Shown: positions 42,188-48,702 of the stretch, in pieces
Position numbering within the stretch: position 1 is the stretch's first letter
Layout of the letters: every line of letters starts with the position of its first letter
Source of the DNA: a virus
Lineage: Duplodnaviria; Caudoviricetes
Strand: one strand, 5' to 3'
Virus record (IMG/VR): IMGVR_UViG_3300027969_000126
Span: 1 to 55,853 of that record
Length of the DNA: 55,853 bases
The notes under the pieces: generated by a model
The model's database searches: none
Seen by the model: only the letters and a program-made list of their open reading frames with translations
Told to the model about the DNA's origin: nothing
Made by a program: the position numbers and the translations under genes

Positions 42188-43099
42188 ATGTCATTACCCT
42201 CAAGAAAACCCGTCAATTATTTAAATAACAAAGATATCTTAAAAGAGATACATGAAAGTAAAACTGCATACTGTCATTTTGCTAAACCAGAATATCATAG
42301 ATATGATTTCATCGTAGATATGCCCCAATCTCCAATTGATGAAAGTTTAGAATACGCATTTAAACCCGAAACTATTCAACAAGCCAAAGAAACTAGAGCC
42401 ACTAGATTAAGTTTGGAAGCAGGGGCAAAAGACTCAATTAGCCCAGATTCTATAGAAATAACCGATCTAGTTTTCCGTGTAATGAATTGGGATCATGTTC
42501 CAGTAGCACCAAAAGTCCCCCGCAAAACAGTTAAAAAGAAAACAGCAAAAGATATCTTTGAATTTGAAGAAGTTGATCCAGATGAAATCTTTGCTGATTT
42601 AGAAGATGTAACCACTAAAGCTGAAGTAGATGACATGGTTCATGTCAAAGTAAACTTTCCCCCATTCCAACATTATAAAATTGACAAAAATAATACTTTT
42701 TATTGCGTAGGTAAAAGTCATTGGAGAGGTGATCTAGCAACCGGAGAATTCAGCAAGGATCATGGACAAGTAACAAACAAACTCGCCCGTATGTATATTA
42801 TGATGTGTGAAAAATATGCCATGAAATATAATTGGCGTGGATATACATACAATGATGAGATGCGTAACAGTGCCATTCTTCAACTTACCTATGTTGGACT
42901 ACGATTCAATGAAGCCAAAAGTGCTAATCCGTTCGCATACTATACCGCAGCAATTACAAATAGTTTCTGTCGTGTACTGAATACGGAAAAGCGTAATCAA
43001 AACATACGTGATGATATATTAGAGATTAATGGACTTAACCCAAGTTGGACTCGTCAGGGTCTGGGCGCTGGTATGAGTTCTGTGGTTTACGAAGAATAA
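42188..43099 (+). CDS. gp55: Late-transcription sigma factor, T4 gp55-like
   Basis: NYLNNKDIL.EI, NWRGYTYNDEM and F...KS.NPFAYYT..I.NSF; gp55-47-46 synteny. Confidence 0.85.
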   Translation: MSLPSRKPVNYLNNKDILKEIHESKTAYCHFAKPEYHRYDFIVDMPQSPIDESLEYAFKPETIQQAKETRATRLSLEAGAKDSISPDSIEITDLVFRVMNWDHVPVAPKVPRKTVKKKTAKDIFEFEEVDPDEIFADLEDVTTKAEVDDMVHVKVNFPPFQHYKIDKNNTFYCVGKSHWRGDLATGEFSKDHGQVTNKLARMYIMMCEKYAMKYNWRGYTYNDEMRNSAILQLTYVGLRFNEAKSANPFAYYTAAITNSFCRVLNTEKRNQNIRDDILEINGLNPSWTRQGLGAGMSSVVYEE

Positions 43100-43107
43100 T
43101 TTGTCCA

Positions 43108-43143
43108 ATGATGTTGCTACGGCAGCATCATTTATTATACAAT
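43108..43143 (+). promoter_or_regulatory. Hairpin AATGATGTTGC-TACG-GCAGCATCATT overlapping a possible TTGCTA-N18-TACAAT promoter
   Basis: 11-bp stem with one G.U pair followed by a T-rich run, in the gp55/gp47 gap. Confidence 0.5.
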
Positions 43144-43149
43144 ATAAGA

Positions 43150-44163
43150 ATGACTAACCTTTTTAAAAAAGCTGCTTGCCTAACTGACATTCATTTTGGA
43201 TTGAAGTCAAATAGCTTGCAACATAATCAAGACTGTTCCAATTTCATTGATTGGTTCATTTCTAAAGCCAAAGAAGAAAATTGTGAAACTTGTTTCTTTT
43301 TAGGTGACTGGAATCATCACAGAGCAAGTATCAATATCCACACACTACAGTTTGGATTACAAGCATTGGAGAAACTAAATGACAATTTTGATAGGGTATA
43401 TTTTATACCGGGCAATCATGACCTTTATTATCGTGACCGCAGGGACATTCATAGTGTTGAGTGGGCTAAACATCTACCAAACGTACAAATCGTCAACGAC
43501 TTCTACTCCAAAGGAGATGTAGTCATTGCACCCTGGCTTGTACAGGATGACTACAAAAAGGTTCAGAAACTAAGTGGCAAATATATGTTTGGGCATTTTG
43601 AATTGCCACGATTCTATATGAATGCTATGGTTGAAATGCCTGATCATGGCGAAATTAATACCGATCATATGAAAAGTTTTGAGTACGTCTTTAGTGGGCA
43701 TTTTCATAAACGACAAAGCAAAGCAAACGTATGGTATATAGGTAATGCATTCCCCCATAATTACGCCGACGCACAAGATGATGCTCGTGGTATGATGGTA
43801 ATGGAATGGGGGCAAGACCCGATCTTTCATAGCTGGCCTAAACAACCATTGTATCGTGTTCATAAGTTAAGCGATATATTAGAAAATCCAAAGGGATTGC
43901 TATTGCCTGACAGTCATGTTAGAGTTCATCTTGACATTGATATTTCATATGAGGAAGCTAACTTCATACGTGAAACATTAATCCCAGAACATAAACTAAG
44001 AGAGATGGCATTGATACCAATGAAAGTAGACCAAGTTGATCAAGAGGGTAGGGGTGATTTGAAGTTTGAATCAGTAGACCAAATCATTATTGACCAAATC
44101 AATAGCATTGAAAGCAATAGCTTTGACAAACGAATTCTCTTGGAAATTTATAACAATCTATGA
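43150..44163 (+). CDS. gp47: Recombination endonuclease subunit (Mre11/SbcD-like)
   Basis: DIHFG, LGDW, GNHD, GHFE and SGHFH metallophosphoesterase motifs. Probable start MTNLF at 43150. Confidence 0.92.
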   Translation: MTNLFKKAACLTDIHFGLKSNSLQHNQDCSNFIDWFISKAKEENCETCFFLGDWNHHRASINIHTLQFGLQALEKLNDNFDRVYFIPGNHDLYYRDRRDIHSVEWAKHLPNVQIVNDFYSKGDVVIAPWLVQDDYKKVQKLSGKYMFGHFELPRFYMNAMVEMPDHGEINTDHMKSFEYVFSGHFHKRQSKANVWYIGNAFPHNYADAQDDARGMMVMEWGQDPIFHSWPKQPLYRVHKLSDILENPKGLLLPDSHVRVHLDIDISYEEANFIRETLIPEHKLREMALIPMKVDQVDQEGRGDLKFESVDQIIIDQINSIESNSFDKRILLEIYNNL

Positions 44164-45923
44164 TAACACTTAAGAATATTACATTACGAAATTTTTTATC
44201 AATCGGACAAGTAACACAAGCAGTAAACTTTGACAGACAAGAACTAACACTTATTCTAGGTGAAAATCTAGACTTAGGTGGTGATGGTGCTCGTAATGGC
44301 ACGGGCAAAACGTCACTCATTCAAGCATTGAGTTATGCATTGTTTGGTGTCCCCATTAACAGTATCCGCAAAGATAATCTAGTCAATCGTACCAATGCTA
44401 AAAACATGATGGTAACACTAGAGTTTAGTGTTAATGGAATCGATTACAAAATTGAACGTGGGCGTAAACCAAACATTCTACGCTTCTATGTAAATAGTGA
44501 TTTGCAAAAGGGTTTGGATGACGCACAGGGTGAGAACAAAGAAACACAGGTTGCCATTGAAAAGGTGATACACATGAGTTCAGATATGTTTAAGCATATT
44601 GTAGCACTCAACACTTACTCCGAACCATTTCTAGCATTAAAAAACAATGAACAACGTGATATCATTGAACAACTATTGGGTATCACATTGCTTTCAGAAA
44701 AAGCAGAAGTGATTAAAGGATTGGTTAAAGATAGCAAAGATGATATTCAGCAAGAAGAATTCAAAGTCAAAGCAATTGAAGAAGCCAACAAACGTGTGAA
44801 AGAACAAATTGATTCTACTAAACGTAGACAGAAATTGTGGAAGATGAAGCACGATGAGGACTTAGAGAAACTTGCTATTGATTATCAAAGATTAATTACT
44901 ATTGACATAGCAGCGGAATTGCAGGCTCATCAAGATTTAACAGCATATAATGAAAAGCGTAAGTCTATTGATGACCTCAACAAACTAGTTGCTCGGTGTG
45001 TAGCTGATGAAGCCAAAGAAGAAAAATTAGTTACAAAACTTACAAAAGAAATTACCGATTTGCGTGACCACAAATGCTATGCCTGTGGACAAGAATTCCA
45101 TGATCAAAAACACGAAAGTGTATTGGATGAAAAAATAAAAGCATTACATGAAGCAGCATTTCAAGCATTAGTTACTAATAAACAATTCTTAGAACACACC
45201 CAAGCATTAAAAGACTTGGGTATGTTAGGCACAATGCCAGTAACGCATTATGATACTGAAGCACAAGCAATCAAACATAGTAGCCAACTTGATAATCTTA
45301 TTAAAGATATTGAAAGAAAAGGTAATGAGGTTGATCCTTATGGTGAGCAAATTACTGAGATGGAGAACCAAGCACTACAAGAGATTAACTTTGATAAAAT
45401 TAATCAATTGACACGTACAATGGAACATCAGAAGTTCTTGCTTGATATACTAACCAGTAAGGATAGTTTTGTTCGTAAAAAGATTATTGACCAAAATTTA
45501 TCATATTTGAATGGTAGATTGACACATTACTTAGATAAGATTGGATTGCCGCATCAAGTAATATTTAAAAATGATTTACAAGTTGAGATTACAGAATTGG
45601 GTAGAGAACTTGATTTTGACAATTTAAGTCGCGGAGAACGTAATCGATTGATTCTAGGATTGAGTTTTGCGTTCCGTGATGTATGGGAGAACCTATATAG
45701 CCCAATCAATACATTGTTTATTGATGAATTGATTGATAGCGGGTTAGACACTATGGGTGTTGAAAACGCTATTGCTATTCTCAAAGACATGAGCCGTCGT
45801 AGACAAAAATCTATTTGGCTTGTCAGTCATAGAGAAGAATTAGCTGGACGAGTACCAAATGTATTGAAAGTTATCAAAGAAAATGGATTTACACAATACA
45901 GTACTTCCACAGAGACATCATAA
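44160..45923 (+). CDS. gp46: Recombination ATPase subunit (Rad50/SbcC-like)
   Basis: NFLSIG, Walker A NGTGKT, CYACG zinc hook, LSRGE signature and FIDE Walker B. Confidence 0.93.
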   Translation: MITLKNITLRNFLSIGQVTQAVNFDRQELTLILGENLDLGGDGARNGTGKTSLIQALSYALFGVPINSIRKDNLVNRTNAKNMMVTLEFSVNGIDYKIERGRKPNILRFYVNSDLQKGLDDAQGENKETQVAIEKVIHMSSDMFKHIVALNTYSEPFLALKNNEQRDIIEQLLGITLLSEKAEVIKGLVKDSKDDIQQEEFKVKAIEEANKRVKEQIDSTKRRQKLWKMKHDEDLEKLAIDYQRLITIDIAAELQAHQDLTAYNEKRKSIDDLNKLVARCVADEAKEEKLVTKLTKEITDLRDHKCYACGQEFHDQKHESVLDEKIKALHEAAFQALVTNKQFLEHTQALKDLGMLGTMPVTHYDTEAQAIKHSSQLDNLIKDIERKGNEVDPYGEQITEMENQALQEINFDKINQLTRTMEHQKFLLDILTSKDSFVRKKIIDQNLSYLNGRLTHYLDKIGLPHQVIFKNDLQVEITELGRELDFDNLSRGERNRLILGLSFAFRDVWENLYSPINTLFIDELIDSGLDTMGVENAIAILKDMSRRRQKSIWLVSHREELAGRVPNVLKVIKENGFTQYSTSTETS

Positions 45924-45980: not shown

Positions 45981-46616
45981 ATGTGGTTTGTTTATATTTT
46001 GTATGATACTAGAAACGGTAACCCATTTTATGTGGGCAAGGGCAATAAAAGACGATTGAAAGCGACATTGAATGTAAATGCCGGGGCTAATGCCTTGAAA
46101 AAGAAATTTTTGAAAGAAATAAGAGCAGTTGGACTTGAACCTGAATTAAAAATAGTAGGAGAGCATCCTACTGAAACTGATGCGTTGAATCAAGAAAAAC
46201 AATTAATTGAACAATATGGAAGAATTATAAAAGGCAATGGATTATTAACAAACTACGCTGACGGGGGAGAAAATGGTAGCACGGGACATATATTTTCTGA
46301 AGATACAAAAAAACTTTGGTCTTCTCAAAGAATCGGAGTTAAACAAACTAAAGAACATATTGAGAGTAGAGTAGATCAACTTAGAGGAAAAATTAGGTCA
46401 ACCGAATCCAAAAGAAAATATGTTTTGGCTAGTATTCGTAGAACTAATCCGGAACTAAAAGTTGAGATTATAAGAGAACTAGAACAAAAAGAATATACCC
46501 GAGGAATGTATACAGAATTATCTAAAAAATTGAATTGCCATCATGAACTGATAAGTAGAATACACAATGAAATTGAACTATACAAGGAAGCATTAAATGA
46601 GTGGATCAAAAAGTAA
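45981..46616 (+). CDS. Free-standing GIY-YIG (Seg-like) homing endonuclease with NUMOD3-like region
   Basis: FVYIL...PFYVGKG..RR, E..A...E..LI, LTN..DGGE and HIFSEDTKK...TKEH. Confidence 0.8.
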   Translation: MWFVYILYDTRNGNPFYVGKGNKRRLKATLNVNAGANALKKKFLKEIRAVGLEPELKIVGEHPTETDALNQEKQLIEQYGRIIKGNGLLTNYADGGENGSTGHIFSEDTKKLWSSQRIGVKQTKEHIESRVDQLRGKIRSTESKRKYVLASIRRTNPELKVEIIRELEQKEYTRGMYTELSKKLNCHHELISRIHNEIELYKEALNEWIKK

Positions 46617-47151
46617 AAATAAAGGTAACTCCTTTGAGCGTGAACTCGCAACTTTTTTGTCAACTACGTATGGTGATTCATTTGTGAGGGCAGCGCATAG
46701 TGGTGCATATATAGGCGGTACTAATACGCACCGAAAAGAGCATCTTACTGAAAATCAAATCAAGTCCTTTAAGGGTGATATAATCCCCCCTGATACTTGG
46801 AATAAATTTAACGCCGAAGCAAAAAGCTATGCAGATTTTCCCTTTCATTTGATACTTACTGGAGAGTGTAAAGTATTAGATGGTTGGCTAGCGCAACTAA
46901 TGGATGTTGCTGATCCAGACGATGTAAACATTCTTTTTCTGAAGTTTAATCGTAAAGGTAGATATGTTTGTGTACAAAGCAAACTAACATGGGTTGCGGA
47001 TAATTTCACTTATTACACCTCTCAAAAACACGGAGACTGGATGATTTTCGAATTTGATAGTTTCTTCTTACATAATATACCAATATTAAAATCATATTGT
47101 TCAACAGACACCAAGTCAAAACAAAATACAATCTTAACTATTGACGTTTAA
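46597..47151 (+). CDS. Putative Holliday junction resolvase (PD-(D/E)XK, Hjc-like)
   Basis: SKNKGNSFERELA, R...SGA, GDI and EAK motifs. Confidence 0.7.
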   Translation: MSGSKSKNKGNSFERELATFLSTTYGDSFVRAAHSGAYIGGTNTHRKEHLTENQIKSFKGDIIPPDTWNKFNAEAKSYADFPFHLILTGECKVLDGWLAQLMDVADPDDVNILFLKFNRKGRYVCVQSKLTWVADNFTYYTSQKHGDWMIFEFDSFFLHNIPILKSYCSTDTKSKQNTILTIDV

Positions 47152-47164
47152 AACGTTTAAAAAT

Positions 47165-47610
47165 TAGTTGGCTCAGTTGTGAGTCCTCCTTGAGTTTGTA
47201 CAGATAGTGCTGTGCTGACGGATCTGGAGTATGCTTATCAGTAATGATAAGGAAAACCGAGAAGGCAATCGTCAAAGCGAACCTTCAATGAGTCTATATC
47301 TAACTCTATCTTGCAGATATAGAACATGCGTTGTCGAAGAATCAATTGAAAGACATTGGTAGCTTCACTACAGTCCCAAAAACACTACAGGACAACCGGT
47401 TGCGTATAATATCAGAAATAGGTAATTATACGGGGAATAGATGGCAAAGGATGACGGGCATGGCAAGTTTCCATTGGTAGTGCAAATTTGCACTACCATG
47501 GCTTCAAAGCGGCAATATATCCCTAATCAAATAAAAGTTTTTAAGACTACAGAATTGTAGAAAAATAAGACCGAACGAAGTGAGGGCTTAGATGAACGAA
47601 GTTCATCTCT
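47165..47610 (+). ncRNA. Candidate large structured non-coding RNA (family not recognised)
   Basis: No substantial ORF; about 12 consecutive stem-loops; G.U pairs and a GTAA (GNRA) tetraloop favour the + strand. Confidence 0.55.
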
Positions 47611-47650
47611 TAATGAACAATCCAATATTAGATAAATGAATAATTACGGA

Positions 47651-47827
47651 TTAGAAGAATGGCAGTTGTGATTTCTTAGTTGTTTCTAAGTTATCTTCTA
47701 TTATCTTACTAATCATAATTCTTTCATCATCGGACATGTTAAGAACATCCTCATAGGATACCCCTCCCCTCATATACCAAGAAAACTTCAAAGCAGTATT
47801 CTTAATTTCTTTTATATCTTTTTCCAT
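47651..47827 (-). CDS. gp51-like baseplate/tail assembly protein (58 aa from ATG; probably the C-terminal part of a -1 frameshift fusion)
   Basis: Hand translation: MEKDIKEIKNTALKFSWYMRGGVSYEDVLNMSDDERIMISKIIEDNLETTKKSQLPFF. The frame is open upstream to 47881. Confidence 0.75.
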   Translation of the reverse strand: MEKDIKEIKNTALKFSWYMRGGVSYEDVLNMSDDERIMISKIIEDNLETTKKSQLPFF

Positions 47828-47874
47828 TTGGTCTAATAGCTTCTGAACCCCTTCAGGGGGTAGGGATAGAAGCC

Positions 47875-48702
47875 TTATCCGAAAAAATCTGATATATTAA
47901 GTGCTAATTCTTGATTGTATTCATGTGAACAATTAACACATTTAATTTGTTGTGGCTTTATTGTTGAATTTGTTCTAATTGTAGATACATGTGTCCTGAT
48001 AGCTTCATATGTATTTCTATCACATTTTTCTATAAATTCTGTTATATGCTCTCTATTTGTTACTACAGTTGACTCTACACTAATTGATTCAACCGTATTG
48101 CAAATTAACTCAGAATTTATTTTTTGTATAGCTTTCATAAGTTCGCTGGATCTTTTATTTCTAGATTCTTCATCTGCATCATCCATAGCTTGCATTTCTC
48201 TAATCTGACGTTGCATTAACAATTGGCCCATGTTGCCGTTATTTACTTCTTTATATGAAAGAGGTTTAAATTTTACTTGTAATTCACCAACATGTAATAT
48301 ATTATTATAATCGTCAGATTTTATCGTAGTTAGTAAATACGATAAATTTACTTTATACTCACCTTCGTTTTCGCATGAAGGGCAAGTTGAAAAAATACCC
48401 AAATCATTGCCATTGGTTGCTGAACGTATGGCAATTAATATAGCATCTAAATCCATGCTAGGAATTGCCCAAGGGTCTTTTATGGCCGGAACACAACTTT
48501 TAATAATATCAACAACTGCACTTCCGTTAAATAATGCATCTGGCGTTTTACCAGTAATTTCATCTATAGCCGTCATCGGGTAAACGGGAAGTTCTCCAGT
48601 TTCGGGCATATCTATTGCTCCTTCAGGATAAAATTGACCTCTGCTAGGTAAGGTTAAATGCAATGCTGCTCTGCGAAAATACTGTCTTAGGGGGTTGTTC
48701 AT
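47875..48702 (-). CDS. Baseplate hub assembly chaperone, T4 gp26-like
   Basis: NPLRQYFR, LPSRG, PMTAIDE, D.DAIL.AIR.AT.G, CPSC and CVNC, terminal DFF. Confidence 0.75.
   Translation of the reverse strand: MNNPLRQYFRRAALHLTLPSRGQFYPEGAIDMPETGELPVYPMTAIDEITGKTPDALFNGSAVVDIIKSCVPAIKDPWAIPSMDLDAILIAIRSATNGNDLGIFSTCPSCENEGEYKVNLSYLLTTIKSDDYNNILHVGELQVKFKPLSYKEVNNGNMGQLLMQRQIREMQAMDDADEESRNKRSSELMKAIQKINSELICNTVESISVESTVVTNREHITEFIEKCDRNTYEAIRTHVSTIRTNSTIKPQQIKCVNCSHEYNQELALNISDFFG
47881..47887 (-). promoter_or_regulatory. Candidate -1 ribosomal frameshift slippery site T TTT TTC
   Basis: X XXY YYZ heptamer in the correct frame, one sense codon before the stop, with a hairpin about 7 nt downstream. 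Confidence 0.7.

Follow-up and report, generated by a model that had tools for sequence, protein, structure and literature searches.

Large, highly conserved and elaborately folded RNAs are rare, and each earlier class of large RNA (ribonuclease P (RNase P) RNA, group I and group II introns, transfer-messenger RNA (tmRNA) and the IscB-associated HEARO RNA) does, or should do, something sophisticated. Among phages, the prohead (packaging) RNA of phi29 is a structured, multimeric part of the virus machinery, encoded beside structural or DNA-handling genes; it comprises about 170 nucleotides (nt) and multimerises via complementary loops. GOLLD, ROOL and OLE are reported to form homo-oligomers (PMC12286853). 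Polynucleobacter-1 (Rfam family RF01718), a described RNA found at the corresponding locus of sister phages, was encountered in the literature searched only as a table row in Weinberg et al., 2010 (PMC2864571). Here we analyze the full 55,853 bases of the IMG/VR virus record IMGVR_UViG_3300027969_000126 (the window; all positions refer to it unless a locus is named), and an RNA encoded on its + strand at positions 47165-47608. The core of this RNA, about 350 nt long, is followed by an A-rich linker that varies and by a pair of 3' hairpins. The source is an uncultured giant T4-like lake phage: CheckV estimated the completeness of the 55,853-base record at 16%, and the phage is therefore a jumbo phage. 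The RNA is almost certainly a real structured RNA gene that belongs to a new family.

Like GOLLD and ROOL, which are often phage-borne, this RNA is large and ornate, contains several pseudoknots and is highly conserved. It differs from them in that neither its sequence nor its structure matches theirs, in its smaller size (a core of about 350 nt), in its occurrence in T4-like lake jumbo phages at a fixed locus between resolvase and tail-chaperone genes, and in the presence of twin boxes. Well over a hundred giant lake phages preserve it with hardly any change, better than the surrounding proteins, and an unusual signal, two boxes kept identical rather than complementary, stands beside a doubly knotted core. 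These properties make it a well-defined target for cryo-electron microscopy, chemical probing and work with culturable phage-host pairs.

The RNA lies in the gap 47152-47650, the longest gene-free stretch in the window (other gaps examined span 28-166 nt), and the flanking genes converge on it, as the initial annotation had described when it proposed the structured RNA. IMG/VR was searched with both flanking proteins, a PD-(D/E)XK nuclease and a gp26/gp51-like chaperone, which yielded 96 loci; a later, enlarged set comprised 216 loci. The gap was matched by blastn in 71 of the 96 loci with 68-95.5% identity over its whole length, corresponding to 52 unique sequences, and in 186 of the 216 loci. 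The alignment used for structure modeling contained the window and 50 of the 52 unique homologues (51 sequences), two homologues cut by contig ends being left out, and the structure model was later mapped onto a larger set of 117 unique sequences. The RNA is better conserved at the DNA level than both flanking genes: across the 216 loci, blastn aligned the RNA core in 171, the nuclease coding sequence in 11 and the chaperone coding sequence in 35, and at one locus (L024) the nuclease protein is 70% identical and the gap DNA 95.5% identical. The gap does not code for protein. Three + strand open reading frames (ORFs) found in it are intact in 5, 8 and 1 of the 117 unique sequences, and the variability by codon phase (0.209, 0.182 and 0.204 in the same set) has no three-base periodicity. 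The gene order is fixed, the PD-(D/E)XK gene lying upstream in 149/149 loci (full RNA, at least 700 nt of flank) and the chaperone gene downstream in 151/151 (full RNA, at least 1100 nt of flank).

Applied to the 51-sequence alignment, RNAalifold gave a fold of 96 pairs, 58 of them with compensatory changes, to which a covariation scan of our own design added two pseudoknots. The final model comprises 109 pairs in 17 helices, both pseudoknots included. Across the 51 sequences, 98.1% of its cells are paired (33.6-43.1% in controls with slid partners) and 69 of the 109 pairs vary on both sides (13-21 in the slid controls); none of 500 shuffles equalled the model. When mapped onto the 117 unique sequences the model is paired in 96.4% of cells, with double changes in 80 of 107 pairs. 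Cells with G.U pairs number 223 and those with A.C pairs 23, and the RNA is therefore that of the + strand; this agrees with the folding energies, since the + strand folds better than shuffled controls (z -2.99, 1 of 100 shuffles as good) and the - strand does not (z -1.22, 12 of 100). Both generic marks of a structured non-coding RNA, compensatory changes above controls and strand-specific G.U pairs, are thus present. By covariation, the + strand folds into three multi-helix domains joined by two pseudoknots that share a purine-rich hub at 47433-44; the hub sequence GGGGAAUAGAUGG provides the 3' strands of both (Table 1). Pseudoknot A has 98.7% of its cells paired with four of six pairs varying on both sides, pseudoknot B has 100% paired with four of four, and both hold across the 117 sequences. 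Many junction bases of the RNA are invariant in the alignment.

Nine of the eleven pairings listed in the initial annotation are kept in relatives. Compensatory changes accompany GGCTCA/TGAGTC, GTACAG/CTGTGC, CTTATCA/TGATAAG, GAAGG..CCTTC, CTATATCT/AGATATAG, CGTATAAT/ATTATACG and AGATGAAC/GTTCATCT; GAAG..ATCAAT/ATTGGT..CTTC is present in single-sequence folds, its outer four pairs being paired in only 78.7% of cells because the alignment shifts there, and the 24-nt palindrome, here called H10, is kept as well. The two others found no support in the alignment: GTCC/GGAC gives way to the pairing of UCCC with GGGA at 47433-36, GAC being part of the helix 47330-35/47391-96, and CTACA/TGTAG lies inside the unconserved linker. 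Of three copies of ACTACAG, the first two (47367-73 and 47383-89) are conserved and the third (47547-53), which is specific to the window and lies in the linker, is not. The GNRA loop, from which together with G.U pairs the + strand had been read initially, caps H3 as GUAA in the window and as GCAA, GUGA or GCGA in relatives and, with the excess of G.U pairs, confirms that strand.

The leader in front of H1 contains TAA(A/C)AAT, kept in 99 unique upstream sequences, after the nuclease stop codon and six bases before H1. This word matches neither the late-promoter word of the window nor the sigma-70 scan, and the leader could serve as a promoter -10 element, be the site of processing or contribute the 5' strand to a closing helix. 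Its pairing with GGCAA of box B (47511-15) is compatible in 86.7% of cells, shows no covariation and is reached by 120 of 500 shuffles. At the other end, six of the seven pairs of the tail hairpin T1 and seven of the eight pairs of T2 vary on both sides, and the T1 loop, GAACGAAGUGA, resembles a loop E or sarcin-ricin motif.

Table 1. Positions of the RNA, its predicted elements and the surrounding genes; positions are those of the window except for the last row.
Feature	Position	Strand	Remark
Structured RNA, whole	47165-47608	+	Core, variable A-rich linker and two 3' hairpins
RNA core	47165-47517	+	About 350 nt
A/U-rich leader UAAAAAUUAGUU	47158-47169	+	Conserved; fixed distance before the first hairpin
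5' domain	47170-47251	+	H1-H3
H1	47170-75/47180-85	+	5/6 pairs vary on both sides
H2	47186-89/47226-29	+	Encloses hairpin 47198-203/47210-15 and invariant loops CCUCCUUGAG and ACGGAUCUGGAG
H3	47234-40/47245-51	+	8/8 pairs vary on both sides; GNRA cap
Central multi-branch domain	47255-47401	+	Closed by long-range helix 47255-59/47397-401; helices 6-12 of the model
H5	47261-65/47282-86 plus 47269-71/47278-80	+	
H6	47288-90/47325-27 plus 47293-300/47316-23	+	8/11 pairs vary on both sides; 100% paired
H7	47330-35/47391-96	+	
H8	47336-39/47363-66	+	Appears in single-sequence folds
Conserved single-stranded words ACUACAG and YUACAG	47367-73 and 47383-89	+	Central domain
Pseudoknot A	CUAUCU 47306-11/AGAUGG 47439-44	+	5' strand in H6 loop; covariation scan
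Pseudoknot B	UCCC 47374-77/GGGA 47433-36	+	Covariation scan
H9 hairpin and hub	47403-47444	+	H9 47403-13/47421-32, 10/11 pairs vary on both sides; then hub GGGGAAUAGAUGG
Twin box A, K-CAUGGCAA (KCAUGGCAA)	47458-47466	+	K = G in the window
H10 hairpin, CCA-U-UGGUAGUGC(A)-loop-(U)GCACUACCA-UGG	47471-47501	+	Palindrome of 24 nt in the initial annotation
Twin box B, K-CGGCAA (KCGGCAA)	47509-47515	+	
A-rich linker	47518-47566	+	Variable in sequence and length; alignable by blastn in only 7/216 loci
3' tail, two hairpins	47567-47608	+	T1 47567-89; T2 47590-97/47601-08
gp47/gp46-like Mre11/Rad50 genes	43045-45923	+	
GIY-YIG gene	45981-46616	+	PHROG 314 'homing endonuclease'
PD-(D/E)XK nuclease gene	46597-47151	+	Pfam PDDEXK_15; PHROG 244, label 'RusA-like Holliday junction resolvase'
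58-codon ORF	47651-47827	-	Behind the gp26/gp51-like gene
gp26/gp51-like baseplate-hub or tail assembly chaperone gene	47875-48702	-	Convergent with the RNA
SegE-like GIY-YIG genes of other loci	L089 2352-2792; L092 5283-5732; L095 1606-2040; L096 5508-5927	- (of the loci)	

The hairpin H10 is flanked by two short boxes, A and B, which are single-stranded in the model. Seven of the 13 pairs of H10 never vary, so that it gives no covariation signal, and the loop-closing pair alone switches between A-U and U-A. The two boxes agree in their first base, K, in 50 of the 51 aligned sequences and in 114 of the 117 unique sequences (GG in 72, UU in 37, CC in 3 and AA in 2). A screen for identity (93%) among the 269 variable columns was passed by five column pairs; four of these hardly vary or belong to the stem of T2, and the K pair alone has two common states. 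The two K columns share mutual information of 1.18 bits (of 1.24), compared with 0.27 for the next best RNA column. Further changes occur in both boxes together, namely AGCA in three sequences and GGCAU(G) in several, with some discordant cases after CA. Unlike the complementary loops of the phi29 prohead RNA, the coupled boxes are identical. Such identity, as opposed to complementarity, points to a shared outside partner, a direct N.N contact between the boxes, or two alleles moved as a block by recombination. A transfer RNA (tRNA) anticodon-loop reading of GGCAA/AGCAG was dropped, since it leaves K unexplained.

The RNA represents a widespread family of large structured phage RNAs that is absent from the catalogues and confined to giant T4-like phages from freshwater, all of them uncultured. 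At least 120 IMG/VR contigs contain the H10 pattern GGTAGTGC-N6-GCACTACCATGG, which none of 185,579 bacterial and archaeal species genomes has, and blastn of the gap against 50,697 deposited phage records returned no match. Public runs that contain the stretch are labelled as freshwater or lake metagenomes, and two of them contain at least half of the sampled words. Rfam 15 has no family that matches the RNA at the gathering score in a scan of the whole window; with expectation values (E) up to 10 on 46900-47900 it returned noise only, the best being CRISPR-DR25 with 20.2 bits and E 0.44. Covariance models of GOLLD, ROOL, OLE, HEARO, raiA and other large Rfam RNAs gave no match in the window, ARAGORN predicted no tRNA or tmRNA gene there, and RNase P RNA and group I and II introns had no match at E up to 10 and few similar words by eye. 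The literature searched contained no report of this RNA. The initial annotation had called the RNA undescribed and had found no match to tRNA, tmRNA, RNase P and group I/II introns, and both statements held in these searches and alongside covariation far above controls.

Possible catalogued kin were found at more distant loci. An Rfam scan of 20 such loci detected Polynucleobacter-1 in three (L066, L068 and L070; 93.5-101 bits), in each case directly behind a PD-(D/E)XK gene (PDDEXK_15). In the window, this family reaches its gathering score of 37 bits nowhere, and 46900-47900 has no match to it even when E values up to 10 are admitted. A covariance model of the two tail hairpins of the window family (R2) matched once in the window and also at L070 and L069 (E 3e-6 each), L068 (E 9e-5), L094 and L096 (E 5e-12) and L089 and L095 (E 1e-3). 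The 141-nt Polynucleobacter-1 motif, catalogued since 2010, looks from these matches like the front end only of a sister RNA of about 540 nt, because the R2 tail follows about 480 nt behind the motif in L068 and L070. Our RNA and Polynucleobacter-1 share the same locus in sister phages, the same two-hairpin tail and the freshwater habitat, whereas their bodies are not detectably alike and the order of their helices differs by eye; RF01718 itself models 141 nt. A model of the hub domain (R1) on 30 loci found two close relatives only and none of the other branches, a model of the central domain (R3) on 23 loci had its best hit at E 0.32 in an unrelated place, and an nhmmer profile of the core on 16 loci reached E 0.2 at best. 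The tail shared with the Polynucleobacter-1 branch could be a terminator of the shared convergent gene.

The same tail hairpins also follow a different large RNA body, upstream of which lies a SegE-like GIY-YIG nuclease gene (139-149 residues, PF19835, E about 1e-35). This gene is directly upstream of the RNA in L089, L092 and L095 and one gene further away in L096. The cultured jumbo phages PA5oct and SCTP-2 carry the same nuclease family with no gap behind the gene. Run with filters off on 121Q, RaK2, Phosso, XacN1, PA5oct and SCTP-2, R2 had a best E of 0.097; in 121Q one partial match (E 0.41, not significant) lies on the expected strand inside an unannotated gap of 836 nt. This gap (L100 3538-4373, Escherichia phage 121Q) separates the tail-chaperone extension from the endonuclease VII gene, and by eye its strand opposite the chaperone gene contains GUUGC...ACAGAGCAACC with a hairpin and a tail-like CUAACGAAUGAAAUGAGUUAG, without significant match to a model. 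A repeat-rich form of the locus was noticed at L069 3520-4540, where about 1 kb between the nuclease gene and the R2 match is full of AGGCUAA-type repeated words and has two copies of GCAAACAC..GAAGCUCUAGGGUGAC.

Taken together, we consider it highly probable that 47165-47608 is the gene of a stable, independently folding non-coding RNA. The RNA would be transcribed with the resolvase gene or just behind it; trimming would then occur at the A/U-rich leader, and the two hairpins would protect the 3' end. It probably acts in trans, as a folded particle, and neither regulates in cis nor functions as a DNA site. The work would be done by conserved single-stranded surfaces, above all by H10 with the two identical single-stranded boxes on its sides. 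These may form a two-fold platform on which one partner could be bound twice, as two copies or at two equivalent sites, through base pairing or as half-sites; this two-fold mechanism is a tentative proposal that we hold to be possible, though not likely. More specific versions are unlikely: a new class of bivalent base-pairing RNA that captures two copies of one external nucleic acid (a host or phage RNA such as a tRNA loop, or a repeated DNA word), in which the boxes would change together because both capture the same target and change with it, or the RNA subunit of an RNA-protein machine with the neighbouring nuclease.

Several observations weigh against this interpretation. No RNA column is complementary to K (best mutual information 0.27), complements of the boxes are not enriched in 1.02 Mb of flanking sequence (55 seen, 62 expected), and no residue of the PD-(D/E)XK resolvase tracks K (best 0.40 of 1.21 bits); the identity of K could also come from a direct N.N contact or from an allele block carried by recombination. 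The invariance of H10 leaves covariation neither supporting nor refuting the helix and could reflect a site at the DNA level. The terminator scan detected no intrinsic terminator-like site at the ends of the RNA, the sigma-70 scan no promoter-like site placed to start at H1, and the late-promoter word of the window, (G/C/T)ATAAATA, is missing upstream of the RNA. Because no promoter or terminator consensus flanks the RNA, its ends are inferred. On the - strand the tail reads as a hairpin with AUUUUU after it, and it could also terminate the convergent chaperone messenger RNA (mRNA). Expression evidence consists of assembled contigs from RNA libraries, which may include DNA and give no ends, strand or abundance. 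Four metatranscriptome runs from three studies contributed contigs over the 3' part of the nuclease gene and the RNA; two of these contigs bridge the end of the gene and the RNA (47050-47463 and 47053-47318), and none of the pieces listed lies beyond 47835. The two bridging contigs, in which DNA admixture is possible, are a weak hint at the co-transcription with the upstream nuclease gene that the initial annotation had envisaged. A higher contig depth over the RNA than over its flanks in one run (X16) was not counted, as contig depths cannot rank genes.

The proposal of a trans-acting folded RNA overlaps with that of a homo-oligomer made of RNA alone (a ROOL- or GOLLD-like cage or ring), in which some seemingly intramolecular contacts, a pseudoknot or the twin boxes, would really be formed between copies. 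By analogy, a large, ornate, phage-borne and highly conserved RNA could assemble in this way as GOLLD, ROOL and OLE are reported to do (PMC12286853). The convergent flanking genes offer no cis-regulatory logic, covariation cannot separate pairs within a molecule from pairs between molecules, and two equivalent boxes would suit a symmetric assembly. The RNA has, however, no conserved self-complementary single-stranded loop (the H10 loop AAAUUU is UGAAUA or other in relatives) and no covariance-model similarity to ROOL or GOLLD, and we regard such an assembly as unlikely. The two boxes would also suit a homodimer, as junction resolvases typically are, and the RNA could partner the dimeric resolvase-type nuclease encoded next to it, act as its decoy or regulate it, by binding the enzyme or mimicking a branched substrate so as to restrain or direct it. 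Every branch examined has a small nuclease gene in front of the RNA and on its strand, PD-(D/E)XK in the 149 loci and the three Polynucleobacter-1 loci and SegE-like GIY-YIG in L089, L092 and L095, and in the window H1 follows the stop codon after only 18 nt. This adjacency is nevertheless explicable by conserved gene order in T4-like core modules, the variable box base is tracked by no resolvase residue, PA5oct and SCTP-2 keep the nuclease family without a gap behind it, and the RNA is far better conserved than the protein, as at L024; a nuclease-directed role therefore appears rather improbable.

A new large ribozyme, for example one that excises itself from the nuclease transcript or acts on host RNA, would agree with the compact knotted fold, the GNRA loop and the many invariant unpaired junction purines, features that RNase P and group I cores combine as well, and the leader at its fixed distance from H1 could be a cleavage site. 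Yet no known ribozyme family matches, nothing in the sequence indicates a reaction and most large bacterial RNAs of unknown function are not known to be catalytic, which leaves catalysis quite improbable. Two further explanations fit the data poorly. The position between convergent genes, the hairpin and AUUUUU of the tail on the - strand and the contigs that bridge the nuclease gene and the RNA could be accommodated by a cis-acting 3' element, that is, a stabilising 3' untranslated region of the nuclease mRNA combined with a terminator or insulator between the convergent units, but an RNA of about 350 nt whose junctions are invariant and whose two pseudoknots covary far exceeds what termination or stabilisation needs, the terminator scan finds none, and the core is better conserved than the gene to be served; we judge this very unlikely. 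Hardly credible is an element acting as DNA (a replication origin, a recombination site or a homing-endonuclease target), for which the perfect, sequence-invariant palindrome of H10 with near-identical direct repeats on both sides would be the core and the sporadic homing-type GIY-YIG gene nearby (9/143 loci) a further pointer, since the pairing is strand-specific and long-range helices and pseudoknots covary. The replication-origin RNA offered as an alternative in the initial annotation, like the DNA site, is unlikely because of the strand-specific G.U pairs and the two pseudoknots.

The initial annotation had placed the RNA directly downstream of two nucleases. The PD-(D/E)XK gene is a constant neighbour, whereas the GIY-YIG gene lies upstream of the RNA in only 9 of 143 loci with full RNA. 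In some loci the GIY-YIG copies are 97.6% identical beside PD-(D/E)XK genes that are just 85% identical. Because of this sporadic occurrence and high identity, the GIY-YIG gene looks like a mobile homing-endonuclease gene beside a conserved RNA gene and not like a partner of the RNA. A PDB sequence search with the PD-(D/E)XK nuclease gave no match below E 0.24.

On the far side of the RNA, the word GATAAATGAATAATTACGG (47631-47650, + strand) is more than 90% conserved; it is found a short way beyond the RNA, immediately outside the stop codon that ends the - strand ORF. It is one letter off GATAAATA, the late-promoter word of the window, and in its + strand orientation would point into the chaperone gene in the antisense direction; the AUGAAU within it could, moreover, pair with the T2 3' arm. 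The 58-codon ORF behind the gp26/gp51-like gene, in the stretch 47651-47874, is in a different frame. A TTTTTTC run (47881-47887, - strand) stands just before the end of the gp26/gp51-like gene and is followed by a CCCCUGAAGGGG hairpin. Elsewhere in the window, 7575-28235 on the - strand is a single ORF of 6,886 codons, presumably for a giant structural or adhesin-like jumbo-phage protein.

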